From Naegleria gruberi (lineage: Eukaryota): DNA of 64,000 bases. The stretch lies in NCBI GenBank assembly GCA_000004985.1, contig GG738906.1. One strand, 5' to 3'. Of this stretch, positions 3,618-61,507 are shown in pieces; within the stretch, counting starts at the first letter, position 1; each line of letters begins with the position of its first letter. A program made the translations under genes and the position numbers. Below the pieces are notes generated by a model that did no database searches, was not told where the DNA came from, and saw only the letters and a list, made by a program, of their open reading frames with translations.

Positions 3618-3906
3618 NNNNNNNNNNNNNNNNNNNNNNNNNNNNNNNNNNNNNNNNNNNNNNNNNNCCGATTATTGAATATTGATTATTGAATTGGTGA
3701 ATAATCACTCTTGATAATGTTACTTATTCATATTGCATGCAAATCAACCTGATTCAATCTACAAAGGTTGGTAGTTGCACCACTTCGTGGCGAAACTATC
3801 CATCCACGATGAATCAACATATGATTCACTTCCATTCAACTCAATTTGACCGTTATAATCAATAAATCAATGAAATGTTTCTTTATTAGCAATACCTGTT
3901 CAATCT

Positions 3907-14501: not shown

Positions 14502-14573
14502 GGGGCCAGCGGAGAATTGAACCCCGGACCTCGTGCACCCTAAGCACGCATCATACCACTAGACTACTGGCCC
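14502..14573 (-). tRNA. tRNA-Pro (anticodon AGG).
   Basis: Minus-strand sequence GGGCCAGTAGTCTAGTGGTATGATGCGTGCTTAGGGTGCACGAGGTCCGGGGTTCAATTCTCCGCTGGCCC closely matches eukaryotic tRNA-Pro(AGG) (anticodon loop CTTAGGGTG, T-loop GGTTCAATTCC, 7-bp acceptor stem). No intron. Confidence 0.9.
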
Positions 14574-21798: not shown

Positions 21799-22818
21799 TT
21801 ACACCAAAAGGACAGCATTAATACATCCATCATTTTCTGGATTATTTGTAACTTGAGCATATTTACCCCACACAACTTTACCATTTGGAGCTACTAATCC
21901 CAAGTCAGAAACGTTGACTTCAAGAACTGTACCCTTAGTAATTACACCTAAAGTTGTATACATGTATGATTGTGGATTCTTTTTAACACCCAAAATTGGT
22001 AATTGGAAAGTTGCCTTCAATTCAGGATGTGTGACGTTTGCCTTTGTAAATCTGAGAGCCATAGGTCTAATAAATCTTTCAAATTTAGGTGGTTTTCTGG
22101 TAAAATCTTCACCTACATAACTGACCTTATTGATCATTCTCTTATACATTTGTCTCTTTCTCTTACCACTACGAACAATCTTGAACATTTCATCTTCATT
22201 CAAAGCTCTAACCTTTGGTACAGGAACAGCCCATTTACCAGCCTTTTCCTTTCTCTTTTGTTTAAGAGTATTTGAGAGAATCTTTGCATGTGAAACACCT
22301 TCACGATCCATCAAATAAGATGGAACAGCTCCACCATGAACAATATCTTCACTTGGTGTACGTTCTTCCTTATTCTTTTGTTCATGTTCTCTAATTTGTT
22401 TTTGCATTTGAACCTTTTCGGCGTGACGTTTCTTGGAGAAGAGTTTAGCCTTGATACCTCTCAACTTGGTTGCCATCTTTGAGGTCTTGTTATGTAAACG
22501 AGCCTCCTTCTTTCGTTTAGTTTCAAAATAATCCAATCTGTGACCATGTTTTTTCTGGTGCTCTTCAATATAATTTCCTTGTGGCTGTTGTTTTCAAAAT
22601 ATATATATTGTTATTATTTTTGTGATGACGATGAAGAGTCGGAATAGTGTAAATCCACAATATTGTCAAATCCGTAATTAGAATAGTAGATGCATCAATC
22701 CATCAAGAATTTGTTATTGGAATATTAAAATTTTGCCGTTAAATTTGTTAGACAGGTTTTCACGTAATAATATAAATCATCATTTAAAATAAAAGTTACC
22801 AGCAAAGCAACCTACCAT
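21799..22818 (-). CDS. NSA2: Ribosome biogenesis protein NSA2 (TINP1 family). Start codon is on a 3-nt first exon: ATG at 22818-22816, intron 22815-22585 (231 nt, GTAGGT...CAG), main exon 22584-21799.
   Basis: The main exon begins [27 protein letters not shown]...[21 protein letters not shown], colinear with NSA2 (MPQNEYIE...). An in-frame TGA lies immediately upstream of the PQ codons, and ATG|GTAGGT is found 231 nt upstream. Confidence 0.8.
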
Positions 22819-23068: not shown

Positions 23069-26000
23069 ATGGCAATACCACCACGGCTGTTCGTCAACAA
23101 TATTAGTCGATTGGTATCTAATAGTAATAATAATAACAATGTTAATAATAATAATAATAACAATAATGAATCTGCTACGACTCTGGGAAGAACACATCAA
23201 GCAATTAATACACCTAGGAATGAAACATCATCGTCTGTTGTACAGAATAATAATAACATTTCTAATATCACCACCCCACAACCTACTCATGTTTTAACAC
23301 CAAATGTCCATAAACATCTTCCTCCACAAACTATGGGGAGTGTTCCTGTTGGAATATCGGAAATTGTTTCACAATTAGTTGGAAAGTTTCTGCCCCCTGA
23401 TGATGATTTTGAAGATGATGATGATTTTCTTTCAAATATAGAAAAGCAAACCAATGCTTTAAATATGATATCATCAATAGTTGAACATTATGAAGACATG
23501 TATCAAGACTTGACAGATCATCCATTACTAGATTTGAGAGGAGATTTTGGAATTGGTACTCTTCTTCAAATTACTGGAGAGGAATTTATCGAAGAAATTA
23601 TTCAATATTTAATGCATTACATTTCAGGAGAATATAATTCTGAAGAGGAACAAGTTAAAAAAAACTTTTTACTTTCAATTTTACGTACTTTACACATGAT
23701 TTATCCTGCTGGATTTGAAAAAACTTTTCTAATGGATGAAATAATGACATTCTTTTCAAAGGAAGTGAAAGAATTTATTAATACTTCCAATAGACCAACG
23801 AGTGACAATGAATTTTTATTTAATTATTCTAAATATGTATACTGTCTTGGATTATTAGGAAGTATTAGTAGGAATTCATCTGATGCAACAACATTTTATA
23901 TTCAAGATGAAATTCCACAACTTTTGTGCAATAGATTCAAACAAAAATTAGAACATATTCCAAAAAGACAAAAGAAAAAGTTGGATATTAAAAATTTCAA
24001 TATAGACTGTAGAACTTTCTCTGGAGAATTTCCAACTATAATTGAACTAGAATATCAGGAATTACGTAACTTGGTTTCTTGTCTCAGTTTTCTTGGAGAA
24101 TACATTGAAGTCATTCAATTTATTATGCAAGCTGGTGGTGCTTCTATAATTTTACCATTACTCAAATCCAAAGACAAATACTTAATGTCAGATGGTCTTA
24201 AAATGTCAGACTCTCTACTTGCACATGTATCATTTGCTCAAAATTTTGTTGAAAAAGGATGTCTAGGATCTCTACTCAAATTACCAGCTATTAATTATTT
24301 ATCGGGTGGTCTTTCCTTATGCCTATCAAGTATTGCAAGCTATCCAGATATCATGGATAAAGTGTTTAAAAATGAAACTATTACTGACAAATTAACAGAG
24401 ATGGGAATAGGATTTTTACAATCTAATCATAGTGAATTGAGAAAATATGGTTGTCAATTCTTTCAAAATGCTTTTGCCTATGTTTCTGTTGTAACTAAGT
24501 TTGATAAGGAATCAGGGTTGAGTATTTTACTTTGTAAGTGTTTTTTTATATTGTTTTAATTCTTACAATATTTAGCAATTCTAAAGGTTGTTTTGAATGA
24601 AAATTCAAAAGAGGACCAAACTTTAACAAGACAATTAATAACAACATGTTGCCAAACTATTAGATCTTACTTTCAATTTCATGTATTACATTTTGGATTT
24701 AATTTACAAAAGAAAATATCTAAAAAGAAAAAACTCAAATATATGGACTTTCAAAATAAGGAATTTACCAATAGAATTGCCCTTGAGCCTTTCAAAAAGA
24801 ATATTTCTGCACTAATGAATGCATTTCAAGAGCAAATTTTTGCTCCAGTTGTAAAAATTGTAAATAGTCAAGATATAATGATATCACTGATGGAAATTTT
24901 AAATAAGAGTAGCTATCTTTGGATGGATGGCATTATTTCCTTTACAGTTTTGGAGATTTTTGAATTAATATCACTCTCTCCATTTTCACACATACCTTTA
25001 GTGGAATGTGAAGTACCAAGTGGTAGAACTGGTATTTCTTTATTGTTGGGTTGTTCTACAGTAGAGAGGGAACCTTTTGTTGTAGAAGCAGCACTGAGGA
25101 CTATACATAACATGTTCTTCCCACACTCTAAACCAATGTCATATCTAATTCCTATTAGAAAAAATTTATGTGAAGTTTTCCGTAATAATGATGGTATTAG
25201 AGTATTGTTAGATAATTTATATAATTATGATGACCCAAGTAATTTAAATATTTTGAGAAAATTATGTTGTGACATTTTGATAGAACTTACAAATGATTCA
25301 GCAATTAATCAAATTCTTATCAAAATTGAAATTGGTGGATTATTAACAGATTTACTAAAAGAGAAGCAAAATGAAGAACAATATGAATCTTTTAATCAAC
25401 TAAAAGAATCTGCTCTTAAACTATTAGAAAAAGTAACAGGTAGAAAGTCAAAAACTGTCATAAGAGAAGCCAAGGATGATACTCTTGTCAGATTAGAAAA
25501 AGCAACTATTGCATCAAATACCCATATTACTTATAGACAAGATGAACTTTTACAATTAATTCATGAATATTTGGATAATAAGGGATTGGTTGAATCTGCC
25601 AAATGCCTAATGAAAGAAGCGAAAATCCCCAAATCTAGTTTGAACTTTCAAATCCCTTCTTTACCAAAACCAAAACCTTTACTAGATAGAATTGTAGTTA
25701 ATTATCTTCGTCAACAACACAGAGAATGTGAAGAACCTATTGCTGTTCTCCCAGAATTTTCATTATTTCACAAACATTGTTGTCCTAAACAAGGAAATTC
25801 TCTAAAAAGTTCTAAATGTTTAGTAAGAAGATTAAATTCCAGGAAAATTTCAATACATCCACGTGATATAGGATATGATTTTCAAAGAAAGAATAGAAAA
25901 TTCCTATACTCTAGATTGAAATATTCTAATACTGTTATTGGTGAATCTGAAATTATTTCTTCAATTGCATTTGCTCCTGATTCTTCTAAAATTTACTGTT

Positions 26001-27276: not shown

Positions 27277-29894
27277 ATGGTGAAACAATCATCATCATCA
27301 GCATCACACTGCTGGCAACATCATTCTCTTGTGGTTTCAATAGCAGTTGCATTGTTAATCATCATATCAAGTCATCACTCAATTCTAGCAACAACAGTAA
27401 CTTTGGATAATTCTGGTGGTATTGACACAACTATTACTACTATGGATACTAATCCTATTGTAAATATTCATAATGACGCATCATCATCATCATCATCTCC
27501 AATATTGCATAAAGAACAAACATTAAATGAAATATTCGGAGTTATTCAAAATGATGAATCAAGTATTGGGGTGAATTTTCTTAAATTTATGAACTTTTTT
27601 CAAAGAACTGAACAATTTCATCCTCTCTCCGATCAAGAAAAACACTCTGGTAAATTTAAAAAGATTGCACTTTCAATTATTTATCACATTCTTGATAGAG
27701 AATTAATTTATTCTACAAATCAATCACCAATTCTTAAATTATTTGATTTATCACCATCTGAAATATTGAGAATGAATAATTTAATGAATACTACAAGAGA
27801 AATAGTTTTAAAATTATCTGATTCAATTATTTCACAACATTTAATTAGAATTGAACCATTAGAGGATGATAATGATGAATTTTCACTTCCACTTAAACAA
27901 TTTGTTGAAAAACAAATGTTAAGATTGAAAGATTTTCTCATTCAAATTGTTAAAATTTACAAAACTAGAAAATATAATTTGAAAGAATTAGGGTATGATA
28001 AAGAAGGTAACAAGCAACCACTCAAATATATTGTAATTGGTTCTGGTCCAATTGGTTTATTAAGTGCCATAGAAGCATCTTTACTCTTACCTAAATTATA
28101 TATTATTGAAAAGAGAACAAATTATTCAAGAGATGTTTGGTTTGATTTGTATCCTAAACCATTTAGTCAATCAGTTGAATTATTGGACGAATTAGCTTTT
28201 TCAACAGAATTTCCAAACTTGGAAATTAAAATTAGTTCAGTTGCAGATTCTGATGGAGATGAAAGAAGAACCTATACTGTCAGATGCCAAATTACTCAAA
28301 GATTTTTATCAAAGGTTATTTATTTATTAGATAATGTAGAATTTATATTTGGATCTCAATATATTAGTCAATGTAAAGTGAAAATACCAAAAGTAACCAA
28401 TCCAAATTCATACTCTCATAATTCAATTCTTGAGAACAGATGGAAGGATATCGGATTTAAACTGAACTCAGAAAGTGAATATCAAGTTGCTCTATTTTAT
28501 CATGGTAAATCAAAAGAATGTTACTCCCATATTGATTATATGAGTTTCAATGAAACACAAGATTTATGTTCTCAATTTGGACAAGAATCATTCTTAAATT
28601 CTAAATGTAAAGTTGAGAGAATACCATTTGATATTCTTATTGGAAGTGATGGTTTATATAGTACTGTAAGAAGTTCACTCAATATTACTACCAGAGATAT
28701 TCATTCTTTTGATGTTTCGAATACGCTTTATGCTCAAACTTTATCAAGGGATCAAATTCCAAAAATTACTGTAAAACCAAGACTTGAACAAGTTGCTCTC
28801 ATAATTAATTTTAAGAGAACTGCTGATAATGACTGTCCAGATACTGCCATTGATGAAGATACAGGTGAATTTATTGGTAAGTTATATTGAAAATTTCAAG
28901 TTTATTTTAACGAATTTTTAATATTTCAAAAGATCCTTGGAAACCAAGTTTGTTATTAGACAATGTTTGTAGTGTTTTCAAGAGATTTTATGCTGGCCAT
29001 TGTCACATGCAAATTCTATTTGATAATAATTATGGTCAAAAGGCAATTGAAAAATACATGCATGCAAGAAGAAATGCACTGAAACAATTATTGGACAAGA
29101 ATAAGGAAGGATCAGTAGTCAATTCTGTTATTTTAGAAACTGAGGCCAAGGAAATTAGAAGTGCTGCTTTTGCAGATGCTTCAAGAGATTCATCTTATGA
29201 TGACTCCTCTAATGGTGATACAAAGAGAGTGATTCCAAATTGGGAGGAAGATGCTTTTGATTGGATCAAGATTATGTCAATTGTTAATACTGTTCTTGCT
29301 GAACCTTACAAGAATGTGAATGATTTTAGAGAGGCAATTGTTAATTCTGATACATTTACTGGGGATAAACAATTGGAGAAAAAGTATGATATGGTTCTAT
29401 TGAGAGTTGTATTACAAAAAGCAGAGAATTTGACAAGAGTAATTCAATTGGACAATCCAACCAATCCGTATGCAATTAATATTCTCAAAGGTGATTCAGT
29501 TGCAAGTGCTCATTTTCGTCTTGGTGTTGGTGTTAATAATGCCTTTCTAGCTTTTGGTGAAATTACAACCTTAATTCGTAATTTGGTTTTACTTGGACAA
29601 GATCAAAATGTTGCTACTTCATCTATCACAAAGGACAATCTTGAGAAGAGTATGGAAATTTATGAAGAAAAAGCACAATTCAGATGGAATCGCCTTATTA
29701 ACTATATGGCTACAGCAATGTATTTTGAATCGTTTTGTAATACTGTGGTGTTCATTGACCCTGGAGAATATTTCGGAATTCAAACCATTCAACAGAAGGA
29801 TTATGATTCTCTCGACTACATTCCTTTTGAAAATTTATATCAGGTCAAAAGATTTTGTCAAGCACAAGATAAACAATCATTGTGGTGGAATTAA
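27277..29894 (+). CDS. FAD-dependent (class A flavoprotein) monooxygenase-like protein with an N-terminal hydrophobic anchor and a long C-terminal extension; 2 exons: 27277-28876 and 28933-29894 (56-nt intron).
   Basis: YIVIGSGPIGLLSAIEA (GxGxxG dinucleotide-binding motif) and LIGSDGLYSTVRS (DG..S.VR FAD motif). Hydrophobic N-terminus HSLVVSIAVALLIIISS. Confidence 0.5.
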
Positions 29895-33012: not shown

Positions 33013-33617
33013 ATGAGTGAAGAACAAATTCATCACCTTGCTCAATTTTATAAATTCATCAGCAACAATAATAACCAACTGGTCGGAGTTGAAAATAATG
33101 CAACAACAAATGACAATAATTTTATACAATATAATATTGCTATTTTAGATTCAATAGTTCAATCGATCGCCTCGAATTCTAACATGTATCAAGCCTATGA
33201 TTGGAATCAACTGTATTTATACTTGTCATACAAGATTCATCACATAAGACAAATCTATCCTAATAATCAAGAAAATTTTGATAATCTAATGCAATCAATT
33301 GACAGTAATTTACGTAAATTTAATAGGTAGGTGTTTTATTCTAAAATATAGAATTTTAAAATTAATTTCTTCAAAGTAATCCACCCTTCACATTACAACG
33401 TCTTTGTGAATTGTTAATTGAGCCAAATAGACAATATAAAAAGCTTGGACATTTACTTAGCTCAATAGAGAAATGTCTAATTGTAAATTCATACATAACA
33501 GATTTTTCCGAAGAAGCAATGCTACGCACTATGGAACCATCACAAGAAGAAATTATCAATCATAATGCTCAACAAATTCTTGAAGAAGAAGACGATGTAA
33601 CAATGCAAGATGTGTAA
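33013..33617 (+). CDS. PPP4R2: Protein phosphatase 4 regulatory subunit 2 (PPP4R2)-like, 2 exons: 33013-33326 and 33377-33617 (50-nt intron).
   Basis: Exon 2 reads FTLQRLCELLIEPNRQYKKLGHLLSSIEKCLIVNS, near-colinear with human PPP4R2 [35 protein letters not shown]. Splice AG|GTAGGT...CAAAG|T restores frame. Confidence 0.75.
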
Positions 33618-35998: not shown

Positions 35999-38093
35999 TT
36001 ACAAATCATCTTCCATAGTAGTTGGTCCATGTAATAATTCAATATCTTTTTCTCTAGAGAGTATTTCCTCTTGTTTCTTCATCAAGAATGAGAAAATGTC
36101 ACTAATTGAAACAATGCCGACAACTCTTGAATATTCATCAACACATACCAATCTGTGAATACGAGTTGTTGACAAGTGTCGTAATACTTTTTCAAATGAT
36201 TCAGCTTTTGTACAAGTAAAGACTGGAATTCTTGGTCTAGTTCTTAAAGCATCTCCCAAAGTCATTTCAAGTCTATAATCACCATCTCTAACAAAGTAGA
36301 CGATATCATATCTTGAAAATACATCAACTACGCATCCATCTTCATTTACAACAGGAATAGCAGAAACCTTATATTTAGCAAACATGCATACAGCTGCAAA
36401 AAGTTGCATTTCCATTTTAGCAGTAACAACATTGGTATATGTACCAATTCCTAAATCTTCTAAACTGTATTGGAAAATTGGAGATTCAAATTTGAGCTAA
36501 TAATAACCTTAATAATCACCAAATTCAAATTTTCATAAAAACCTACATTTTGAACTAGATAGGCAAGAAGATGTGAATGTGTAATAATATGTAATAAAGC
36601 TCCCTTTGGTGACAAAACTGGCAAACGATGGATTGAGTACTTGCTAAGAGTATGAATTGCTGTAAGTAAAGTATCTTCAGGTGTTACAAAAATAAGCTTA
36701 TCAGGTCTTGTACGTTTTTGCATTGCTCTCCATTCTCTAATTGTCTTGTGAGTTACAAGGTCTTGAATAACATCCATTTGATTGTGGAACAATAATAAAA
36801 TATCAATCAAATCGGTAACAGTTAACATTCCGACAAGACAACTCTTTTCACTATCCCAAAGAGAAGCAAATGAAATGTCTAAATAATCAATTTTGAATAC
36901 TATAAATCCTTAATTATTAATAACATACCATTATTAGCAGCAACTTGGAAAGCTTCTCTAACTGGCAGATCAATATCAAAAACTATTACTTTACCAGAAT
37001 AAGGCATTAAATCATAGTTAGTATTTTGTTTGAAAAAATCGAAAATAGGATCCAAAATTTCCTCTTGAATCTGTCCGTTAGAGACTCTTGGTTTTGTTGT
37101 TGGTGATGAACTAATAATAACTCCATCTTCATCACTCATAATTTTAATATTACTTGGTGGTTTTGTAATGGCATGAATACCTCCTTCAGAGAGACTAGAC
37201 TCATCCATGGAAAAGTCATCTTCACTAGTGTTTTTCTTTGGAATGTTCATGATAGTAGAAGATTTAATGTTGTTGATTTTTTGTTGTATTGATGATGTTT
37301 CGGACTTTCCAATAACACTCAAATTATTATTCTTGTTGTTGTATGAGTGGTCTTTAATATTATTATCCAATGACCGTGTAATACTTGGAAGTGAGAGTGA
37401 TCGGGTAGGAGTAAAATATTTTTTTTGTTTCTTTTGGAAATTTGTGCAACCCATCTGTTTGTTGCTGTTTGGAAAATTAGTGGTTGCTGGAGTTTGATTT
37501 GCAGAATTGGAAGCTTTGAATGCAACAGAAATCACTTCATCATTGATTCTTCCCAATTTTTCATACCTTGATTCGAGTTCTTGTTGTCTTGCAGCATAGG
37601 ATGTTGGAGATTGTAATTGGTCATAAACAATTGACTTGTTGTAGAGAGATGAATCAGAGGAAAATGGTGTTTCGAATTGTCCTGTCTCCTTCCTTCCTCC
37701 TGTTTCTTCCATCAGTGATTCATCATCATCAGCTTGAGGGTTTGTAATGAGTTGTTTAAACAGTTGTTTTTCATCTTGTTTTTTGAAAAGCAAATTGTGA
37801 ACTTTAGATAGAATTCTCCTCAATTTCTGATTCTTCTTAATAAAGATATTGTTATGGTCAGTTTGTTTGAATTGAACATTATTGGAATCTCCGTTGTTAT
37901 GGGCTGTTTTAAATTGATGATTTGAATCACTTCCTCCACTTGTTGACTTTCTAAAGAATTTACCAAACAATGAATTTCTTCTTTCTTTGAGTATTTGAGG
38001 AGAGTAGGAGTCTCTCCTCAATTCAACGGTTTTACTTCTTGAATGATTAACATCCAAAGATTTGGTAATTGTTGATTGTGTGGTTGTTTCCAT
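35999..38093 (-). CDS. PRKAG: AMP-activated protein kinase gamma (SNF4-type, 4 CBS domains) with a long low-complexity N-terminal extension; 3 exons: 38093-36929, 36878-36547, 36496-35999 (two 50-nt introns).
   Basis: Spliced product: ...VAANN|DISFASLWDSEKSCLVGMLTVTDLIDILL...IHRLPVLSPKGALLHIITHSHLLAYLVQN|LKFESPIFQYSLEDLGIGTYTNVV...SAIPVVNEDGCVVDVFSRYDIVY...IHRLVCVDEYSRVVGIVSISDIFSFL. It is colinear with AMPK-gamma CBS1-4. Junctions are GTATGT...TTTAG and GTAGGT...ATTAG. Confidence 0.85.
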
Positions 38094-39403: not shown

Positions 39404-39887
39404 ATGGTTTACACTAGCATTTTGTTCCACAGCGACAGATGGAAGGAATTTGTTCCAGCTGAGATGCACCAAGAAGTAGAATCTAAAATCAGCAGTATGT
39501 ACATCAAGAATAGTATGAAACAATAACATTGTGTTAACGTTTTTATGAATTTAATAATAATTGTTGGAATTTGTGATTAAATTGTTCGGATGATGTATAG
39601 AATTGAAGCCTCTTGTTTCTGAAGAAGAAATGGACAAAAACAATGTTCCTTTGTATTTGAGAGATGCCTGTGTTCACCGTGTTATCCCTCTCAACAATTG
39701 CAGACACGAAAATTATTATAATCCTTTCAAATGTGATGATGAAAGAATTAGATATGAAAGATGCCAATACAAGAGATACATGAAGTGGGTGCAAAAATCA
39801 CAAGACTTATGGCGAAGAGAAGAAAAATTGAGAATTATCAAAGAAAAGTTAGAAAAAGCCAAGATGAACGCTCCAGCTGATGAATAA
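39404..39887 (+). CDS. NDUFB7: NADH dehydrogenase (ubiquinone) 1 beta subcomplex subunit 7 (NDUFB7/B18)-like twin-Cx9C protein; 2 exons: 39404-39494 and 39601-39887 (106-nt intron).
   Basis: Exon 2: LRDACVHRVIPLNNC...CDDERIRYERC (two Cx9C pairs) with the RDAC.H...L..C context typical of NDUFB7. The upstream exon is inferred from ATG at 39404 and AGCA|GTATGT...TATAG|AA restoring frame (moderate). Confidence 0.6.
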
Positions 39888-40064: not shown

Positions 40065-41872
40065 TTACTCTTGTTTTTCATTTAAAGTTGTACCAATCTC
40101 ACCCCTTCTGAACATTGTAAATTGTCTGATGAATGGTTTTTCAAATTTGTAGAGGCAAACAATAAAAAGCATTAAAAACAAACTTCCAACACCTATATGA
40201 ACGAATCTGACAATGCAAAACAGTTTTGTTTTAGAAATATCAAAATAGAGTTCTGTAGCCTTGGTAATAACAAGGCAACTGGAAAGTACTATTAGTACTA
40301 CTTTGGATGGAATGATCTGTTGTAGAATTTCACTTGGTTTCATTCTCAAATTATTCTTGTGTTTCTTAAAGAATAAAACTATAAAATAGGTGCTATAGGA
40401 TATTCTCATTAACATATTAAAACAGTTGGCAATAATCATACTCTTAGTTCCCAAATTGAATAACCACAAACATGTAATACAAACAGACATGTACACAATA
40501 GAGAATAGAATCATAATGTAATTCAGTTTGATAATTTCCTTTCTATCTGAAAGTGCATGAATAAAAGCTTCACTTATTCCATTTAAAGCCATAAAGAAAA
40601 TATAAAAACAGTAAATAGATAATATCTGAGGAGCTTCAGTATTATTGGCCCATTGGTCACCATATAAGAGATAAATGAGAGTGTGAGAGTAAGCAGGTCC
40701 AAAGAAGGCAAATACACAACCAATTAAAATGGATGCTTTCAAAAACAGAATTAAAACTGTGGCGCTTGTTGTAACTGATTCAGTAATTTCGTCATTGGAA
40801 GGTTTCCTTTCAGTACAATTTACAATATTGCTCAATTTACTCCAAATAGAGAAACTGGTTTCTTCCAAATATTGAAATATTAAACGAGCTGCCAAAGATC
40901 CAAGATTAAAGACAATATCATAAACTCCCTGGTCATACTGAGTACGAAATAGAATTAATATATGTTTTTCACCTTCTGTGAGTATGTATTTAATTACGGA
41001 TTGATAGAGAAAACTTTGCGAGAGTTCAAACAAGTTCCAATCCCATGAAATTGTAAATTTTTCCAATAATTTGTTACCATTATTCCATTTAAAATTATAA
41101 ATTAGATATCCAATAAATATTGTCAAACTATAACATATTTGACTATATCCAAAGTAGAGTAAAACATTTTCTGTTTTGCAAATATTTACAATAAAAAAAC
41201 TAGAAATAATCTTGATAAATAAAGCACTAGCTTCTATTGTAACTCTAACACCAAATGCCAATTGAGCAAGAGAAAGAATATACATTGGTTGAGCAAAAAT
41301 TTCAATAAATGTTGCAAAGCTATAAATCAATAATGGAGATATTGTAGAATCTACCTTTGGTAAATAAAATGTTCCCCAAATAAAGTAACAAAAAATCATT
41401 GTCAACAATCCATATGGAATTGACAATAAAGAAATGGTTCTGATTTTCTGATATTGGTTTTCATTATTACTTTCATTCAAATTTGTTCTTAAACAAGCTC
41501 TTCTAAAACATTCTGAGGACAGAAATATTACAGTAGTTGCAAATAGTTCAGATTTAAAGATAAACTATTCAAAGTCATAAAAATTATTAATCTCAAAACT
41601 TACACCCTTAGTTCCTGGATCTAATTGTCTTATTATATATGTATTTGCAACAAATGTTACAATTTTAGAGAGGAAGGACAAAGCTTGATAAATTTTAATA
41701 ATTTGTTAATTTTTCAAAACATACATAATAAGTAGGATAAACCCTTTCCTGCAGATGTTAATGTATCCTGAATATGACTTTTTGTTGGTTGGTTGTTTCC
41801 GATTTGTTTTTCAATCAAGCTCTCTCTTGCTGTACCATCTGTGATTGTATTACTGATGCGTATTTTGGTCAT
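40065..41872 (-). CDS. RFT1: RFT1 (lipid-linked oligosaccharide flippase homologue), 3 exons: 41872-41725, 41683-41604, 41564-40065 (introns of 41 and 39 nt).
   Basis: Spliced product: ...LSFLSKIVTFVANTYIIRQLDPGTKG|FIFKSELFATTVIFLSSECFRRACL...ILTEGEKHILILF...[28 protein letters not shown]. It is colinear with human RFT1 (FLSKEIVGV...AREAFRRACL...ILTEGERYVM...[28 protein letters not shown]). Confidence 0.85.
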
Positions 41873-45585: not shown

Positions 45586-47359
45586 ATGATCCATACCTAT
45601 ATTGCATATTACATTACAATACTTGCAAAAATTGTGCATCAAGTACCTCTACCATTTCTTACAATTACTATCCTTTCGAATGCTGTTGCTTTTTTTATTG
45701 AATTATATTTGGATTATAGACAAAGTAAACTTTTGAAAACTTCAAACATTCCCTCAAAATTACAAAAATACTTGGATAAGGATGAATTTGATGATATGAG
45801 AAATTATGTAGGTAATAATTTAACAATTGATTTTATAATGTGTGAAAGAGCATTTTGAGATTGGGATTTTCAAGATTGGAAAATGCATACGGGTTTATAA
45901 CTGAGGTTGTGATATTATTATCTGGGGTTCTAACATGGATTTTTGACTTATCTTTGAAAATTAATATTTTACTCTTTAGTTTAGGGGAAGAATATGCCAT
46001 TACAAGAGGTGTGACATTCCTCTTCCTTGTTTCTTTACTGAGCACTTTGGTGAGAGCTCCATTTGAGGTTTATAGAATTTTTGTGATTGATGGAAAATTC
46101 TTTGAAACCAAGCAAGAAAGAAAAGATCTTCAAAACTCTACACTAACCAATGAAGATGTTGCTATATTTTCACATCAACAATTATTGGAAAGTAGTAGAT
46201 CCAAATTAATGCAAATCAATAATGCAAAAATGTTTTTTGGAGATGAGCAAGGTGATAATTCTGTAAAAAGTGATGAAGAAGAAACAACATCCCAATACAA
46301 TGAAATATCAAATTTTAAAGAAGATATTACAAGTGATAATGATAGTGATGGAAGTGAGGGAGGAGTTCAGGATATAATGACAGTTTTTCGTAATTGGATA
46401 ATGGATCAAATCAAAATGGGAATTATTTCAGTAGTTATAGGCACTCCACTTTTATTCTTAATTTTGTGGTTGCTTACAACTGGAAGTCCAATTCACTGGG
46501 TTTATATGTGGGTTGGAAGTGTTGCCCTAGCTGTGGGTATATATGAATTATATCCAATAATATTAGCTCCAATGTTCAATACTTTTTATGGTAAGTATTT
46601 TAATTTTTATATTAAATATAATCATTTTTAAAGAAATGCCAGAAGGGCCTCTCAGAAAAAGTATTGAAGAGTTGACAATTAAAGTAGGAATTCCAGTTAA
46701 AGATATTGTCTACGTAGATGGATCAAAAAGACATGAGAATGCAAATGCATTCATGATTGGATCAGGAGAAAATAAGAAAATTGTTCTATACGATAATTTG
46801 ATAAGTAAAGATGGTTTGAATTTGACAAATGATGAAATACTTGCAATATTGGCACATGAAATTCACCACTATAAGATGAATCACAGCATCAAAATATTAA
46901 CTTCACAAGTTTTTTCTTTAGGGATATTTTTATTTATCCTCTCATTCACTATCTACAATGAATATTTTTACAATAGTTTTGGATTTACAGAAATTGATGT
47001 AAGTTTACAAAATTCAATTCCATTATCTTACAGATTTTTTTCAGCCAAGTGTTGGATTATGCTTATTCTCATATCTTTTTCAACCACTGGGAAATTTTGC
47101 CATGGTAATTCTCAATCATATTCAAAGAAAATACGAATATTCCAGTGATGAGTACAGCATGAGTCTTGGATATAATATTGAGGAACCTCTCATCAAAATG
47201 CATGTCAATAATGTTTATAATTTAATTGTAGATAGATTATACTCTAGCTATTACAATGCACATCCTTCCTTATTGGAAAGAGTTGATAATTTGAAAAAGT
47301 GGATTGAAAGAAATGCCCAACGACAACGTTTGAATGAAAAGTTGATAAAACAAGAATAA
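45586..47359 (+). CDS. STE24: CAAX prenyl protease 1 (Ste24/ZMPSTE24 zinc metalloprotease), 4 exons: 45586-45807, 45849-46590, 46634-46998, 47045-47359 (introns of 41, 43 and 46 nt).
   Basis: Spliced product colinear with ZMPSTE24: ...FNTFY|EMPEGPLRKSIEELTIKVGIPVKDIVYVDGSKRHENANAFMIGSG...ILAILAHEIHHYKMNH (HExxH)...FGFTEID|PSVGLCLFSYLFQPLGNFAMVILNHIQRKYEYSSDEYSMSLGY...AHPSLLERVDNLKKW. It contains an acidic insertion. Confidence 0.85.
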
Positions 47360-47544: not shown

Positions 47545-48018
47545 ATGCTCAATAATATTAGTGGATCCAATACCCAGAGAAGAGTATCCCGCTATTCCTT
47601 TCTCTCTAAAGGAAATCATAATACTGATCACCATTATCAACAACAAGTAATAGAATTGAATCCATCAACACAAGTTGAATCTAAATGCTATTATTTTGAT
47701 GATCCTCATCAGCAAGAAATCAACCGATATATTAGAAATAATTATAATTATTGTGTTGTTGTGGAATTTGAATTTAAATCCGAAAATTATAACATCAATA
47801 ATTTTTCTCCAAAATACACCATCAAATCAGTCTGTTTTAATATTATTCCTCTATTCCAGCCAAACAATTCCTCACATCATCATGATATGAATATATCCTA
47901 CTTTTATGAAAGAAATAGAGGAATTATTATTAATAGTGAAGAATTTCAACCTGATGAACAGTTAACAATGGATATTTCCTACCCAATTCATATTGTTTCT
48001 GATTTGAAAGAAGCAATA
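47545..48018 (+). CDS. ORF of 158 aa ending exactly at a consensus donor (CAA ATG|GTAAGT); either a separate small gene or the 5' exon of the downstream RRM gene (327-nt intron to the acceptor AATAG|TTG at 48346).
   Basis: ATG at 47545; ends at ATG|GTAAGTAGTGG. The downstream ORF at 48346 has no ATG for more than 500 nt and begins immediately after ...TTGAATAG. Confidence 0.3.
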
Positions 48019-48345
48019 CAAATGGTAAGTAGTGGTATTATTTTTCTCTTAGGTATTCAATACTAATATGACTCTTTATCATTGTAATGACACTTTCTTT
48101 ATATCTAACAATACATTTTTCCATTGTGCTCGTTGATTTGCCTAATTTTAATTTTCCCCGATTTTATTGCAAATTGATTGAATTCATTATTGTCCTACAA
48201 CCCCTACAATTGTTTTATTAACTGTTCAACTTGTCGCCTCATCATTACCACTGGTGATTGTTTTTTATTATCAATGATGATTCTTTACCACCATTTTGAT
48301 TGACCCTTCATTGAAAAAATTGCTCCAATTGAATGTGTTGAATAG

Positions 48346-50853
48346 TTGGATCAACATATTATTAGTCACACTCAATCATTATTATCATCTCATTCAAATA
48401 ATAGTAAGAAGAGCTTTTGTTTCCTATCAACTACAACATCAATTTCAAACAATACTGATATTAGTTTACCTCATATTTTACAAAATATTCTAGACTCTAT
48501 TCAAATAGAAAATCATTATCTTATAGAGAAGACATACTTTATCAATACATCTATAGGATTGCATCAACAACATTTATTGGAAAACCAATCCTCCCTACAG
48601 AGTAATAATTTTCCCGACCTTTACCAAGCATTCCCGACAAACAATTTATTGTCACCACCACTCCAATCAACAAATAGTAGTGATAATTGTCAATACTATC
48701 CACTCAATTATTCTCCAACACAAAATTATTCTACTAGTTTTCATACTAACAAGAATTTATTGCTAACAGCATCAAACATAACAAATACCAAACATAACTT
48801 TGAAGGGAAAATTTTGCTTGAAACAATTACTCATTTTACGATTTGTGAAAAAATGGCTCAATCAGTAGATACCCAACAAGACTCATCCGACAATACTCCA
48901 ACAAACAATTGCAGTACAAGTACTGCAAATAATCAACAAACCGAGCAAGATGGTCAACATTCTATTCAGAATTCTATTTCCGAATGTTTAAAAAAACCAC
49001 TTTCTATCCATTCACCTTCCTTTGAACCACCTCTTCATGTTTTACAACAAACAATTAGACAAGAGAGAGTACTTTTTCAACAAGTGAACTCTCCTCTAAC
49101 AGATGAATTTAAAACTTGTGTTGTAAGATTGAGAGGATTACCTTGGACAAGCACAGTCCAGGATATTGCAGAATTCTTTTCTGAATTCAAACTTGCTAAA
49201 AAGGAACAATCCAAAGATGATACCGACTTGTCATCATCTGAAATTCAACCAACAATAGAACAGCCAAGTACTTGCATAGTAGATTCAAGCTCTCCATCAC
49301 AGTTAACCTATGCAGCTATAGTATCTATGGGCGTTTCAAGTAATGAGCAAATAACTGATATTGAACAAGTAATCCAACAACCAATTAAGCAATACAAAAT
49401 TTCAGTAGATACAGCAAAGGATATGGATATTATACTAATGTTAAACTATTTTGGAAAATCAACTGGTGAAGCCTATGTCAGATTTGAATCTGAAGAAGAG
49501 CTCGAAAAAGCAAGAAAAACTATGGATAAGAAGAATTTAGGTAGCAGATATATTGAAATTTTTAAATCTACCATTGAAGAAATGGAACATTCTAGAAGAG
49601 TATTAGAAAGAAACTTGAAGAATTTGAATAATTCTAAAATTTTAAAGATGCGTAATGTACCATTTTCTGCAACTGAAGATGAAATTGAAACATTCTTCTC
49701 TGGACTCACTATTGCAACTGTTCAATCAAGAAATCAAGCTGAACAATCAAATGAGACTAGAAGAAGAAAAGTGTACTTTGTTTTAAACCCAATGAATGGT
49801 AAAAGAACTGGTGAAGTTTTCGTTGAGTTTACTTGTCATGACCAAATGTTACAAGCCGCCAAGAGAAACAAGGAAAAAATTAGAAATAGATATATTGAAT
49901 TATTCCATAGTAGTATTTCAGAATTGAGAGCATCTCAATACTATATTCAACAACAACAACAACAAAATTACTTTCCATACCAACATATTACAAGACCTAG
50001 AATATCAGGTGTACAAAATAGAAAGTCCAATTTCATTGTAAAAATTGAAGGTTTACCAACTAGTTTTGAAGAAAATGAAATTGCTGAGCTCTTTAATGGT
50101 TTATCTTTATCCGAAGCAGGAATTCATCTCATTTTTGGTGAAGATGAATGTTCTACAGGTGAAGCTTTTGTTGAATTTGTAAATGAAGAAAGTTTTGCCA
50201 AAGCTCTAGAACAAAATGATACTACTATTTCTTCAGTGGATGAAAATAATGTAGAACAACAAAATACCATCAAAGTAATAGCATCTGATCGAGCTGAAAT
50301 GTTGTCAGTATGTGGCATTGAGGAGGAGGAGGAGGAACAAGATGAAGAGGAAGAACCATCTAACAATACTACACTTGAAACAACACTCGATCAAACCAAC
50401 CATAACGATTACTCAAAGAGAAGATTTAATTATAACAATAACTTTGCTTATCCAATGGTGTATTATGTTCCTTCCTATACTCCATATTATGTCAATCCTT
50501 ATTTTCAACAACAAGGACAATCATTTAGAAATAATTTAGATCCAAACACAGATTCAACAATTGTTAAACAACCATTCAAATATAAGTTATTCGAACATCC
50601 AGAAAGAACTCTAAAGATGCGTGGATTACCATTCTCTTCAACTGAAAAGGAAATTGCAGAATTCTTTGCAGGATATGATTTTGAGGAGGATTCAATAAGA
50701 TTCAAGATGGATTTCAAAAGAAATCGTCAAACAGGAATTTGCTACATTAGGTTCAGAACCAAGACTGAGGCTGAAAGGGCAGCCAATGAAAGAAATAGAT
50801 GTAATATTGGCGATCGTTACATTGAACTTTTTACAATCACTCCAAAAACGTAA
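48346..50853 (+). CDS. hnRNP F/H-family RNA-binding protein with multiple quasi-RRM domains (835 aa in this exon); Asn/Gln/Ser-rich N-terminus. The 5' end is unresolved (see previous feature).
   Basis: Repeated VVRLRGLPWTSTVQDIAEFF / LKMRNVPFSATEDEIETFF / IVKIEGLPTSFEENEIAELF / LKMRGLPFSSTEKEIAEFF motifs (RGLP...DI..FF), typical of hnRNP H/F, GRSF1 and ESRP quasi-RRMs. Confidence 0.75.
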   Translation: MDQHIISHTQSLLSSHSNNSKKSFCFLSTTTSISNNTDISLPHILQNILDSIQIENHYLIEKTYFINTSIGLHQQHLLENQSSLQSNNFPDLYQAFPTNNLLSPPLQSTNSSDNCQYYPLNYSPTQNYSTSFHTNKNLLLTASNITNTKHNFEGKILLETITHFTICEKMAQSVDTQQDSSDNTPTNNCSTSTANNQQTEQDGQHSIQNSISECLKKPLSIHSPSFEPPLHVLQQTIRQERVLFQQVNSPLTDEFKTCVVRLRGLPWTSTVQDIAEFFSEFKLAKKEQSKDDTDLSSSEIQPTIEQPSTCIVDSSSPSQLTYAAIVSMGVSSNEQITDIEQVIQQPIKQYKISVDTAKDMDIILMLNYFGKSTGEAYVRFESEEELEKARKTMDKKNLGSRYIEIFKSTIEEMEHSRRVLERNLKNLNNSKILKMRNVPFSATEDEIETFFSGLTIATVQSRNQAEQSNETRRRKVYFVLNPMNGKRTGEVFVEFTCHDQMLQAAKRNKEKIRNRYIELFHSSISELRASQYYIQQQQQQNYFPYQHITRPRISGVQNRKSNFIVKIEGLPTSFEENEIAELFNGLSLSEAGIHLIFGEDECSTGEAFVEFVNEESFAKALEQNDTTISSVDENNVEQQNTIKVIASDRAEMLSVCGIEEEEEEQDEEEEPSNNTTLETTLDQTNHNDYSKRRFNYNNNFAYPMVYYVPSYTPYYVNPYFQQQGQSFRNNLDPNTDSTIVKQPFKYKLFEHPERTLKMRGLPFSSTEKEIAEFFAGYDFEEDSIRFKMDFKRNRQTGICYIRFRTKTEAERAANERNRCNIGDRYIELFTITPKT

Positions 50854-50860
50854 TTAAAAT

Positions 50861-51542
50861 TTACTTTGATTTATGTTTTGTTTCTGCATTTTCTATCATA
50901 TCATCACAAGTTGAATACCAATAACTCTTTGGATAAAATTCAAGTTTAGAAAGTGTACCATTGAATTTACCAATAAGAATATGTAAATGGAGATGGTCAA
51001 TTGAATTGAATGGGGGTAAATGAAATCCCATTCTGTTTTGTACAATTTCATTTGAACACATTTCACTCCATAATTCGTGGTGTCTTCTTTTTGCAAATTG
51101 CTCTCCAACTCTTTTCATGTGTTTAACTTTGGATATTAATGAAAGCTAAGAGATGCACCAACTTACCCAAATGCAAATCATCTCTATTACTGATTGTTCT
51201 CATTGTTGGGGTGTGTTTAAATGGGACGACAAGATAATGAAATTCAGCCTCCGGACGAATATCCTCTACAATGTAACACACTTCATCTCTAAATAAAACA
51301 ATTGTATGTAAATCATCATCTTGTTTATGAAGATGACAAAATTTGCATTCGTGCTCTTTTCCTGTAAAAATTCTTTTTAGAAACCTAAAGCTAAACACTA
51401 TTGTTTTGATAATAATAGTTTTGATGATAACTCCTATGAATACAAGTATCATTAAAAAACTTTTAAAAGATGACATTTCCGATTCATTGAAATCCAAAGA
51501 AGTCGCTGAGGCCGAGTGTTGTAGTCTTTTGGATGAAGGCAT
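50861..51542 (-). CDS. HINT: HIT-family (HINT-like) protein with an N-terminal hydrophobic extension; 2 exons: 51542-51167 and 51126-50861 (40-nt intron).
   Basis: CKFCHL...LHTIVLFRDEVCYIVEDIRPEAEFHYLVVPFKH...DLHLG|VKHMKRVGEQ...GFHLPPFNSIDHLHLHIL (histidine triad HxHxHxx). Splice G|GTAAGT...CCAAAG restores frame. Confidence 0.75.
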
Positions 51543-51957: not shown

Positions 51958-52698
51958 ATGAGTGATAAAAAATATACACCACAAGACGTTTTAAAGTACA
52001 ACAAACCAACTGAGGGTAAGTGTTCATACAATAGGAAGTTTGGAAAATAATATTTGATGATGGTTGTAAAACAAAATAATTATTTTAATTATTAATAACG
52101 AATAGCCTTCTTATGTCCCCTTAACGCTAATACTGTTGGAATCCAATTCCTTGAATTCAAGATCCGAAACTGTGATTCAGGTGAAGTTCTCTTCCACACC
52201 TCTGCTGAAGAAACAGCCAAGGAACTTTTAAAACAAGGAACTACGATAGATGAAGACTCTCTTCGTTCAATCAACTACAAATTCGATAAAGCCATGCTCA
52301 GATCTAAAGGAATTGGTACTACGTAGGTATTTGATTTTTCAGATTGATCTAAAAAAACAAGTTTGACTTTCAAGGTTGGTCCAAAGCCAGTTAAAAACTT
52401 TAGAATGATCGAAAGACACTACTTTAAGGAAAAACTGCTTAAGGGTTTTGATTTCAATTTCAAGTTCTGCATTCCTAACAGTCAAAATACTTGGGAATGT
52501 ATTTATTCGATGCCAGAACTGACCGAAGAAGAAAGTAAGTATCACCATGTCAATTCATATTAACAAAAACCCTCAGTCATTGAAATTGAAAACAGTCCAT
52601 ATCAAGTTAAATCTGATTCATTCTACTTTGTAAATGATGACGAAATGATTATGCACAATAAGGCTGCCTACGCTTATGTTGATGCAAAAAAGGATTAA
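51958..52698 (+). CDS. UNC119: UNC119 (HRG4) lipid-binding ciliary cargo chaperone homologue, 4 exons: 51958-52015, 52106-52322, 52362-52534, 52577-52698 (introns of 90, 39 and 42 nt). Absent as an intact ORF in the track.
   Basis: Spliced product: [19 protein letters not shown]|[30 protein letters not shown]...GIGTT|[58 protein letters not shown]|[35 protein letters not shown]. It is near-colinear with UNC119 (FVRFKIRDMDSGTVLF...[41 protein letters not shown]...[25 protein letters not shown]). Confidence 0.9.
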
Positions 52699-57324: not shown

Positions 57325-60101
57325 ATGTTAAACTTCCATCCTGATTTTCCTCCCCAGAACATTTGTTGTGACTGTGGTTGCCACACTTGTGATAATGATG
57401 GATCGTGTAATAATCCTTCAGTGCCATTAATATTTGAAACTTGTAATCAAAATTTAAATCAATTGTGGAAATCTTCTCATTTGAATATTTATTCTCCCTC
57501 TGATGTTTGTTTTGGAGCATACAACCCTGTCATGGATCTCTTTAGACTTCTCCAAAAATTTAATCCAAACTTTCCAAAGAAATTTTGTTTTGATGAGCAG
57601 GAATGTAAATCAATTATTGAAGCCTTCTATTCCACTCCTGATGATTTAGACTCATCTTTTTTATATGATGTTCTGATTGGTGAAAGATCAAAAACATCAT
57701 CACCAATCCCGATACTTTACACTGCATACAGTAATGGTCCTCAGTGTGATAATGTCGATCAGTTTGAAACCTATTGCTTTAGGACAAAAGAGGATTTCAA
57801 AGCTGCAGTAAAGGCTCATAAAATTTATGAAGATGATCAAATGGATATTCAAAGTAGAAATTCCAAAACAGCCATTGATAAACAATTACAAAAGAAATTA
57901 ATTCAACAAGCAGAGAAAGTATTAGAAATTTCTCCAAATTGTTTGGAAGCCTATAATGCCTTGGCACTTTATAAAGCAACAAGTTTTGAGGAAGCTTTGG
58001 AGTATTACAAAACTGCACAGAGTAAACTGCAACAACATTATAGTGATACGGCCCATGAAAATAGAGAAAAATTTGAAAAATCAAACAAACATCAATTGTA
58101 CTACATTTTGGAATGGAGACAATACATGAGAGCATTGGTAGGGGAAGCAAACTGTCTTCGAAAGCTTGGAAGGTATGAGGAAGCCCTAAAGTGCTATCGA
58201 AAATGTGAACAATTAGATTCAGAGCCTCATGAAATTCGGCATGACTCTATCTCATATGTAAATTATTTATACCATATTCCAGAGTGTTTGATTAGGTTGG
58301 GTAAATTCAAAGAAGCACTAGATTTTTTAAAAAGTAATAGAGAATTATTAGCTCTTCCATCATCAAAAATCTTACTATGGAGTTTTGCTTTATGTGAGTT
58401 TGTAGTATCTAAATTACCAAGAGATTTTAATAGTATTGAGAAGTATGTCATTCCAGAATGTTATGATGAAGAACATGTATACTCAAATGCAATAGTTCCT
58501 GCTGCACTAGTTTCACCTCTTTTTTACGAATATCTGATAGGAATTAGAAAATTGTCTAACATTAGGCTTTCAAAAACGTTTAGAAAGAATAGTAATGACA
58601 AGCTAGTTTCAGAAAATTCACAAATTCAATACTGTGTCGATTATTTAGATATATGGTTAAATATTCCAGGAGCTCTAGATTGGGCCATCACAAATTGTAA
58701 CACAATTTATGCACAAATGTGCCTCTCTAAAACAGAAAAAGAATTGAGTCGAAAATATTACTATCCTAATGATCCATACAAGAATTTGGCGTTATATTCG
58801 AATGGATTTTTTGTAAACTCTACACAGCCAATGACGGGTAGGCAACTCATTCACACAGCAATAGATAATAACGATAGAGAAACTATTAGCTTTTTGATTT
58901 CTAAAAAAGCGGTTATTGTCTCCAAAGAAATCAACTCTAGTCTCAATCCTCTCTATTATGTATGTGAAAGAGATAAGGAACAGATTTTACAATTTTTACT
59001 TTCTAGTAGTTCTTTCATTAGGATTGAATTGTATCCAAAGGCTTTTGAAATCTGTTCCTATCTTGGTCATTGGAAATGTTTAAAGATTTTATTTTGCGAA
59101 ATTTTGAAAAGAAAAACTATTGATAATCTTTTGCTGGAAACATGTGTAGAGGCTATTGTAAACTCTACCTCGTTTGGTTGTATTGGTAATTCATGTAAAT
59201 ATTGTAAATCTGTGAAGGGATTCCAACATTCTCTTAACACCAATTATGTCAATTGCTTGGATATAATATTAATGTTTGGATGTAAAATTGAAAAAGAATG
59301 TATTCAAAAATTAGAGGATAAAAAGAAGAAGACTCTCTCAGATCGAGTTAACCAAATTCAAAAAAGACAAGTAGTTTTAAATCCTACAAAATATGGAATT
59401 ACTGATACAAAAGTTCTTAATTCTTTGAAAGAGATTAACCCATATCAAAAGCTTACTTTAGTCAACCAGCATTCGGCTCAAACAGCAGAAGAACTTAAAG
59501 ATGTTGGAAACCAAGAATTTCAAAAAGGAAAATTTATGGAAGCACTCAAATACTACAAACAAGCCCTTGAAAAGAGTGATCATGTCAAGATTACACATAT
59601 ACTACACTCCAATATAGCTCAATGTTATATTAATTTAAGGCAATTTGAATTAGCTTTGGAACATTCAGAGAAGGGAATTTCTGTTGATCCAACTTTTGTA
59701 AAATGTTTTTATAGAAAAGCATTAGCTCTAGATGGTCTTTCTAGAAAGAATGAAGCCTTAGAAGCAATAGAGGTAAGTTATGTTTATTGAATGGCAGACT
59801 CGATAATACTTTTATTGCACAGATGGCACTAACTAAAGAACCAACTAATGAATCATTCCAAAAATTGAAAGAAAAAATCAAGAAGGATCTTGTTAATCAA
59901 GATAAAGAGGAAAGACTCTGCAAACATTGTGGAGGAAAACGAATTCCACGTGTCTGTGCATACTGTGGTAAGGAGGCCAAGAAGAAGTGTTTTGGATGTA
60001 AAGAAGTAAGATATTGTGACCTGGGTTGTCAAAAACATGATTGGGAAAATCATAAATCTGCTTGTAAATGGGCAGAAATGCATAAGAATGCCAAAAAGTA
60101 A
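57325..60101 (+). CDS. TPR-repeat plus C-terminal MYND zinc-finger protein (about 909 aa), 2 exons: 57325-59772 and 59823-60101 (50-nt intron); possibly a ZMYND-type axonemal-dynein / Hsp90 co-chaperone-like factor (inference).
   Basis: C-terminal TPR triplet AEELKDVGNQEFQKGKFMEALKYYKQALEK...AQCYINLRQFELALEHSEKGISVDP...YRKALALDGLSRKNEALEAIE|MALTKEP...CKHCGGKRIPRVCAYCGKEAKKKCFGCKEVRYCDLGCQKHDWENHKSAC (MYND C4-C2HC). The junction GAG|GTAAGT...CACAG|ATG is in frame. Confidence 0.7.
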
Positions 60102-60214: not shown

Positions 60215-61507
60215 ATGAATTATTCCGTTCGTTTGTTATTCTCGAAATCCATCAATTTTATTCGGAATAGACACTACTCTGTTTTGGCTTTTTTAATTTT
60301 TACCATCCTACAGACGATCACAATAATTGCTGTGATGATTGCAAATATGATTTATAATTCTCTTGATGAGGAGCCTTCAGTAGCAGTTTATTTTCTATCC
60401 GTTATTGCAATATTGGCCATGCTGTGTATGTGTTATTTTGCTGTGGATGCAATTGTAAATGAAAACAAAATGATGATATATTCGTATATTTTAATAAGCT
60501 TATTTCTAATGGGAAGACTCTTATATGGATTAGCGTTTGGGGGAGAAGCAGAAGAATTATTAACCCTTGTCCCTAGCTTGTTAATTTGTTTTTTTGAAGG
60601 TAGGTCATTATTATTAAGGGTATATCCACATTAACCCATTACTATAAGTTTGTCAAGTTGTTTTATCAGTGCCAGTTGTAAAAAGTTTTGGATGGAAATT
60701 ATATAGAAAAATTGGATCTGGAAAACTGTTGCATGAATTATATAACACTTACCATATTTTTGTTGCAATACTGAAAATTGATTTTGTCTTTACACTTATT
60801 GTTGGATTATTGGGATTTTTCTTCGTAGTTTTTGATTATTGGTGGGTTTACTTATTATTTGCCACCGGAATATTGTGCTCTCTTTGTAAGTTTTCACAAT
60901 TTTTCAATAGGTGTGATAATTGAAATTGAAAGTGAGTTCACCACTTGTTATTTATTTTGGAATTCGAAGAGAAAATAAGCTCATTTGCTCCATATTTGTC
61001 TGTATTTGTTTGTTGGTACCATTATTCTTAATTTACAAAATTACCATCCTGTGGCTGCCTTCCTCACATGAAATTGTGGCTGAATGGGGAGGATCTTCGA
61101 TGTCTCAATTTGAAATCAAGATTGGCTTGACCTTACTCTCTTCCCTTGCCTTTATTGTAAAAATAATTTTGATTTGTGTAACTGTGGTGTGTATGAAAAA
61201 TTTTGGCAAAGGTCTTGCAGAAACATTTAGAAATACCCAATCACTTGTTTTGCAAAAATCAACCATACAACCCACCTCAGCTCCATACTATAGTGATACT
61301 ATTTCAGTAACTTCTAATGCTCTTTTTGCAGTAACATCTTCTGGTGATATTGTTATTAATGATGGCAGAAAGCAAATGGTTTCAGTTTCATTGACAAGAT
61401 CAATTTCAGACGATTCTGGGTTTTTGGGCTCGTCTAGCCATAACTATTCATCTGGAGACGAAGAAGAAATAATTCCAATTAATAGACCAAAGCAATCTAA
61501 ATATTAA
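60215..61507 (+). CDS. Polytopic membrane protein (about 390 aa), 3 exons: 60215-60599, 60670-60885, 60933-61507 (introns of 70 and 47 nt); hypothetical, with a Ser-rich cytosolic tail.
   Basis: Three track ORFs in different frames are joined by G|GTAGGT...TATCAG and T|GTAAGT...TTGAAAG junctions that restore frame; at least 8 hydrophobic helices. Confidence 0.5.

Follow-up and report, generated by a model that had tools for sequence, protein, structure and literature searches.

A 64,000-nucleotide (nt) window of a Naegleria gruberi scaffold (contig GG738906.1 of assembly GCA_000004985.1), which is the whole stretch of DNA analysed here and to which all positions refer, raises the question of how a lone in-frame stop codon inside conserved coding sequence should be read. 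The case in point lies in RFT1, where a 39-nt segment at 41565–41603 places a single TAG in the reading frame. Similarly short segments interrupt other genes of the window, several of them with a length that is a multiple of three (3n) and with a stop in frame, so that a further question is whether these stops carry any meaning of their own. We catalogued 24 introns in 15 genes of this one window, and the count of 15 intron-containing genes bears out an earlier remark that introns fragment the open reading frame (ORF) track in at least 15 genes.

The 39-nt segment of RFT1

On the minus strand the segment reads GTAAGTTTTGAGATTAATAATTTTTATGACTTTGAATAG; it is 39 nt long with GT and AG at its ends (GTAAGT..TAG) and a GC content of 21%, and it forms intron 2 of the gene, in phase 0. 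Translation that continues in frame from the upstream exon yields VSFEINNFYDFE and then a stop; there is no other stop, and this one is supplied by the TAG at the 3′ splice site. Intron 1 of RFT1 lies at 41684–41724 on the same strand (41 nt, phase 1, GTATGT..AAG). Once both introns are removed, the gene encodes 575 amino acids (aa), and this protein agrees with the deposited RFT1 homolog of N. gruberi (P0005) at 100% identity and 100% coverage, which upholds the view of the preliminary description that the lone TAG is intronic and could be mistaken for a pseudogene lesion or a reassigned codon. Both junctions are contiguous and ungapped in an alignment of 11 orthologs, some of them derived from transcriptomes, and the 13-residue insert is present in none.

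The RFT1 loci of Naegleria lovaniensis and Willaertia magna, where annotated proteins were mapped back onto the DNA, contain introns at the same two positions and in the same phases (1 and 0), with lengths of 52 and 47 nt in N. lovaniensis and 44 and 44 nt in W. magna, and the middle exon measures 80 nt in all three species. The intron sequences of the two relatives are unrelated, and their lengths are not multiples of three, so that they must be spliced out. Inserts of 47 and 44 nt at the homologous position do not permit in-frame translation, from which it follows that the 39-mer of N. gruberi is orthologous to these introns and is a multiple of three by coincidence. The flagged segment is thus a real, ordinary and very short spliceosomal intron, intron 2 of RFT1.

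The chance that the TAG is instead a reassigned or read-through stop codon, or the lesion of a pseudogene, and hence not intronic, is in our judgement vanishingly small. It is true that the in-frame reading of the 39 nt holds one stop only, the terminal TAG, but the 13 codons have no counterpart in 10 of 10 orthologs, the segment combines GTAAGT..TAG ends with its low GC content, and the relatives carry the frame-breaking inserts described above. Reassignment also fails on the coding content of the window, where the standard code closes ORFs as long as 1171 codons and a relaxed reading of any stop codon makes the picture no more coherent; four single-exon ORFs, for actin, histidyl-tRNA synthetase, an L15-like protein and FM142/CFAP61, match deposited N. 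gruberi proteins of the 286,411-bp scaffold exactly. The genetic code of the window is standard, and stop-codon reassignment or read-through is already contradicted.

Splice signals, lengths and gene models across the window

For the RFT1 introns and the segments removed from the other genes alike, we put at about 0.9 the probability that they are ordinary U2-type GT–AG spliceosomal introns of N. gruberi nuclear genes, at or near the lower length limit of this organism. Every one of the 24 starts with GT and ends with AG. The donor is GTAAGT in 12, GTAGGT in six and GTATGT in three (21/24 conforming to GTA[A/G/T]GT, with three others), and the acceptors are AAG (10), TAG (10) and CAG (4). Recognition would be expected to proceed from this strong donor together with an AAG, TAG or CAG acceptor; the 3′ splice site carries A at position −3 unusually often for a signal that normally follows the YAG rule. 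Mean intron GC is 0.22. In 13 of the 24 introns, a TTAAY motif resembling a YTRAY branch point sits between positions −13 and −26, a figure taken without a control for a motif that is frequent by chance at such AT-richness. An unrestricted scan for GT..AG segments joining ORFs returned 11,400 candidates and was uninformative; when the donors were restricted and reversed sequence served as control, enrichment appeared at 40–58 nt.

The 19 short introns measure 39, 39, 39, 40, 41, 41, 42, 42, 43, 46, 47, 49, 50, 50, 50, 50, 54, 56 and 58 nt, and five longer ones 90, 106, 160, 231 and 321 nt. All ten microintrons that had been listed for Rft1, AGMO, DCAF1, UNC119, HIT and Ste24 could be located with the lengths given, and the longer introns of 90, 106, 160 and 231 nt were likewise recovered, while a tentative "327?" becomes 321 nt in the only GT..AG solution. 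The lengths end at a sharp floor of 39 nt, which three introns reach exactly and none in the window falls below; a related metagenome contig (L005) contains one intron of 35 nt. For orientation, the average annotated intron of N. gruberi is 203 bp long, and read mapping in N. fowleri used a minimum of 30 bp (PMC8296547).

The preliminary description had set a discrete 39–46-nt class apart from one of 50–58 nt. Two mechanistically distinct classes of about these sizes, as reported for some ciliates, are in our view unlikely. A two-component Gaussian mixture places its means at 40.6 and 50.7 nt, and four introns of exactly 50 nt face three of exactly 39 nt; the two-component fit is not preferred, however, with a Bayesian information criterion (BIC) of 126.3 for two components and 127.1 for one (n = 19), lengths of 46, 47 and 49 nt bridge the gap, and no difference in splice signals is visible between the groups. 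The split as stated is not supported by these data.

Intron removal restores a continuous frame for the conserved product, which matches a deposited protein exactly for five genes and aligns without gaps to orthologs for Rft1, DCAF1, AGMO and the gene beginning at 27277. The deposited gene models of N. gruberi NEG-M, whose genome was reportedly described by Fritz-Laylin et al. in 2010, have the same introns at the same coordinates and identical proteins for Rft1, UNC119, Ste24, an AMPK-gamma-like gene and a G-alpha gene. Where relatives can be compared, position is kept while sequence and length are not, as seen for Rft1, UNC119 and DCAF1 in N. lovaniensis, for Rft1 in W. magna and for AGMO intron 2 in L005. 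Introns of 39, 39, 41, 42, 42 and 90 nt in N. gruberi correspond to longer ones of 47, 81, 52, 66, 52 and 91 nt in N. lovaniensis (L001, L003, L004). Two N. gruberi introns are missing in relatives, namely the 56-nt intron of gene 27277 in N. lovaniensis and AGMO intron 3 in L005.

UNC119 (plus strand) holds three 3n introns, at 52016–52105 (90 nt, phase 1, in-frame TAA), 52323–52361 (39 nt, phase 2, GTAGGT, the stop being made by the donor itself as G|TAG) and 52535–52576 (42 nt, phase 1, in-frame TAA), and the spliced product is an exact match to the UNC119-like protein EFC38548.1. Its N. lovaniensis counterpart also has three introns, of 91, 81 and 52 nt, in the same phases (1, 2, 1). The spliced Ste24 gene (plus strand), with introns at 45808–45848 (41 nt, phase 0, GTAGGT..AAG), 46591–46633 (43 nt, phase 1) and 46999–47044 (46 nt, phase 0), equals EFC38546.1. 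Exon 2 of this gene carries at 46100–46370 a low-complexity, acidic insertion that spans some 90 residues (approximately 160–250), which is in frame, free of stops and part of the deposited 547-aa N. gruberi model; a typical Ste24 has about 450 aa and lacks such an insert. Exact matches are likewise given by the AMPK-gamma-like (CBS) gene on the minus strand, after removal of introns at 36879–36928 (50 nt, phase 1) and 36497–36546 (50 nt, phase 0), to EFC38607.1, and by the G-alpha gene, with one minus-strand intron at 15304–15463 (160 nt, phase 2), to EFC38603.1.

Orthologs guide three further genes. The DCAF1 intron at 24534–24575 (plus strand, 42 nt, 3n, phase 1, in-frame TAA), found by joining ORFs, has a phase-1 counterpart of 66 nt that interrupts the aligned Ser codon in N. 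lovaniensis, and the protein alignment is ungapped over the junction. In the gene at 27277–29894, the intron at 28877–28932 (plus strand, 56 nt, phase 1) leaves a junction peptide, DEDTGEFIDPWKPSLLL, which recurs unchanged and uninterrupted in the N. lovaniensis ortholog, a gene that has no intron. The gene for alkylglycerol monooxygenase (AGMO; 18742–20461, plus strand) has three introns: intron 1 at 18865–18922 (58 nt, phase 0, weak donor GTTTGT), intron 2 at 19286–19339 (54 nt, 3n, phase 0, GTAAGT..TAG), at whose site L005 has a 42-nt phase-0 intron also ending in TAG, and intron 3 at 19944–19982 (39 nt, 3n, phase 1, weak donor GTATTT, in-frame TGA). The L005 ortholog, 68% identical, is intronless at the 39-nt site and reads GPGWDIFSQTWYECP, compared with GPGWNCFTQGWYECP in the spliced N. 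gruberi model. Two alternative segments were rejected in this gene, one of 106 nt for intron 1, since with the 58-nt choice the length of exon 1 fits that of L005 (42 aa in L005, 41 aa in N. gruberi), and one of 60 nt for intron 3, which the intronless L005 ortholog excludes. The AGMO model has no 100% match among deposited proteins, the best being a 64%-identical metagenome ORF, and the N. gruberi annotation apparently either lacks the gene or models it wrongly.

For the remaining genes, domain matches and ORF joining point to the following introns. The HIT-family gene would be joined across a minus-strand intron at 51127–51166 (40 nt, phase 1, GTAAGT..AAG), where one Pfam DcpS_C/HIT match crosses the junction (residues 66–184, profile positions 2–108 of 114), and a PPP4R2-like gene across one at 33327–33376 (plus strand, 50 nt, phase 2), where one Pfam PPP4R2 match does so (residues 45–175). 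The NDUFB7 intron at 39495–39600 (plus strand, 106 nt, phase 1) joins ORFs with a Pfam NDUF_B7 match, and introns interrupt the orthologs of N. lovaniensis (125 aa) and W. magna (122 aa) at a comparable position. In NSA2 (21799–22818, minus strand; Pfam Ribosomal_S8e match), the intron at 22585–22815 (231 nt, 3n, phase 0) directly follows the ATG; the first exon within 22585–22818 is the ATG alone, and this model is absent from the protein collection. Putative introns of the plus strand, joining ORFs, lie at 59773–59822 (50 nt, phase 0, GTAAGT donor) between the TPR and zf-MYND domains of a TPR/zf-MYND gene, and at 60600–60648 (49 nt, phase 1, GTAGGT donor) and 60886–60932 (47 nt, phase 1, GTAAGT donor) in a membrane-protein gene at 60215–61507. 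A putative 321-nt intron (3n) at 48025–48345 on the plus strand would connect the ORF at 47545–48024 to that of an RRM protein at 48346–50853; it is without homology or annotation support and is the least certain entry of the catalogue.

In-frame stops in 3n introns

As introns are non-coding, about one third of them should be multiples of three, and the observed share (9/24 overall with lengths of 39, 39, 39, 42, 42, 54, 90, 231 and 321 nt, and 6/19 of the short ones) is indistinguishable from that fraction (p = 0.66, computed on a 23-intron catalogue with 9/23 before AGMO intron 1 was added). A deficit of 3n introns was not seen among the short introns or in the whole catalogue, in a sample that is far too small for a deficit of 1.3–1.7-fold. 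All nine contain an in-frame stop, the five named in the preliminary description (39, 39, 39, 42 and 42 nt) as well as the four added here (54, 90, 231 and 321 nt), and reading through them would truncate the product and not insert residues, as had been stated. More generally, retention of any of the 24 introns puts a stop in frame, which lies inside the intron in 20 and in the downstream exon, 41–147 nt from the donor, in the other four, so that an unspliced transcript would encode a truncated protein. Such intron-retaining transcripts could well be targets of nonsense-mediated decay (NMD), given that N. gruberi possesses UPF1, SMG1 and SMG9 (PMC5709506), and intron retention has been reported in its RNA sequencing data (PRJEB23822; PMC6142364).

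Any suggestion that a stop in each 3n intron is remarkable is not supported. AT-rich introns that start with GTAA or GTAG and frequently end with TAG will for the most part hold a stop in any entering frame: a stop lies inside the intron in 76% of the combinations of short intron and phase, and in 100% of those in phase 2 because the GTAA or GTAG donor creates TAA or TAG at once. Of the six short 3n introns, three owe their stop to the splice-site consensus, and in phase-0 3n introns the TAG acceptor can itself be the in-frame stop (Rft1 intron 2, AGMO intron 2). Shuffling of the intron interiors gave a probability of 0.18–0.25 that nine of nine 3n introns have stops (expected number without a stop, 1.1–1.4) and of 0.21–0.25 for the five named ones. 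The stops in 3n introns are thus not shown to be more frequent than by chance, being about as common as base composition and splice-site consensus would lead one to expect.

The way in which introns are found also matters here. The preliminary description recognised its introns through breaks of ORFs, so that stop-free 3n introns were invisible to it by construction. Roy and Penny (2007; PMC1950532) used the skew of 3n introns as a diagnostic of annotation and noted that introns inferred from ORF breaks are biased to contain stops; theirs is the same blind spot, although their study treats genome-wide annotation quality and not Naegleria. When the coding ORFs of the window were scanned for stop-free 3n GT..AG segments with intron-like donors, 37 candidates were obtained and none was intron-like. 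All 37 had a GC content of at least 0.25, and those that could be judged against homologs lay in conserved coding sequence, such as the G-alpha P-loop, actin, and helices of Rft1 and Ste24.

A different explanation is known from Paramecium, whose introns of about 25 nt include short 3n ones in which premature stops provide a safeguard through NMD (Jaillon et al. 2008, Nature 451:359, as cited in PMC5014332), a principle extended to other ciliates (PMC5014332). By analogy, splicing of the short Naegleria introns might be error-prone and the stops of 3n microintrons maintained by selection, so that retained mRNAs would be destroyed by NMD instead of yielding proteins with insertions. We regard this as a genuine possibility that falls somewhat short of even odds. 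The resemblance to ciliates is considerable, in that introns are very short, the 3n ones have in-frame stops, retention leads to a premature stop and NMD factors are present; selection would also fit the reported intron retention, the lack of a convincing stop-free 3n intron inside coding ORFs, and the relatives, in which seven of seven 3n introns contain stops (N. lovaniensis 66, 81, 72 and 51 nt; W. magna 72 and 108 nt; L005 42 nt). For most of these seven, however, the chance probability of a stop is near 1, and chance gives the pattern in the window with a probability of about 0.2. Unlike those of Paramecium, Naegleria introns are at least 39 nt long as against about 25, and in this sample 3n introns are not under-represented (9/24) and stops are not clearly more frequent than composition would predict. 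Introns inferred from ORF breaks or by gene predictors are biased towards stops (PMC1950532), and among orthologous introns 3n and non-3n lengths interchange freely (39 to 47 or 44, 39 to 81, 42 to 52, and 42 to 66 nt).

The more specific proposal that Naegleria short introns are under ciliate-like, NMD-linked selection with a hard 39-nt floor, in which a TAG acceptor or a phase-2 GTAA/GTAG donor is preferred as a built-in stop for 3n introns, appears speculative and rather doubtful. A TAG acceptor is found in three of four phase-0 3n introns versus seven of 20 other introns (Fisher p = 0.27). Chance and selection fit the data equally well.

Several points weigh against taking all 24 segments simply as ordinary GT–AG introns of minimal length. 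Their excision is deduced from annotation, orthology and reading frame. Ten full-length models, AGMO and nine others, are not exact matches to deposited proteins: look-ups returned no exact match for AGMO (two variants), HIT (three start variants), NSA2, NDUFB7, PPP4R2, DCAF1 and the genes at 27277, 57325, 60215 and 47545, and a chimeric 1970-aa query for deposited versions of the ten unverified models returned only the N. lovaniensis DCAF1 ortholog. Five of the introns come from ORF joining with consensus donors, namely those of 50 nt (TPR/zf-MYND), 49 nt, 47 nt, 321 nt and 231 nt (NSA2), and the HIT 40-nt and PPP4R2 50-nt introns have a junction-spanning Pfam match as their sole backing. Finally, the presence of stops in 16 of 16 3n introns of the window and its relatives also fits selection, which a 64-kb sample is powerless to exclude.

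Chromosomal setting and meaning for annotation

The window has a GC content of about 30%, and its start resembles a chromosome end. Positions 1–401 consist of a (CCCAAA)n array (TTTGGG on the other strand) that degenerates into CCCAAAACTAAA units, assembly gaps of N lie at 984–2605 and 3618–3667, and the first 5 kb or so are gene-poor; the TTTGGG repeat has previously been proposed as a telomere candidate of N. gruberi (PMC3622300). BTB-like ORF fragments at 5548–7945 (plus strand), with frame changes around 5940–6470, may represent a pseudogene of the subtelomeric region or an error in the sequence; no plausible GT..AG intron joins the fragments, which were omitted from the intron catalogue. 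The protein of the intronless actin gene at 8534–9664 (minus strand) carries four N. gruberi accessions, pointing to several identical gene copies. A tRNA-Pro(AGG) gene at 14502–14573 (minus strand) is the sole Rfam or ARAGORN match in the window.

Narrow peaks of intron length near the lower limit are known from other protists, with about 48–55 nt in Tetrahymena and Ichthyophthirius and 33–36 nt in Oxytricha (PMC5014332), and introns of 47–51 nt occur in homing-endonuclease genes of myxomycetes (PMC9548176). The Naegleria introns share with such systems a narrow canonical GT–AG peak near the spliceosomal minimum, and differ in belonging to Heterolobosea and in a floor of 39 nt in the window, with 35 nt on the related metagenome contig. 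The observation is correct and the biology already known, since the introns are already in the deposited annotation, and the principle of NMD surveillance is already published for ciliates and other eukaryotes. If NMD-linked selection on stops were true for Naegleria, it would extend this principle to Heterolobosea, an incremental step.

The significance lies mainly in annotation practice, because six-frame ORF maps of N. gruberi break genes at introns of 39–58 nt. Some genes of the window, such as AGMO and NSA2, appear to be absent from the deposited protein set or modelled otherwise in it, and a lone in-frame TAG like that of RFT1 should be read as a retained microintron, and not as a pseudogene or a reassigned codon.

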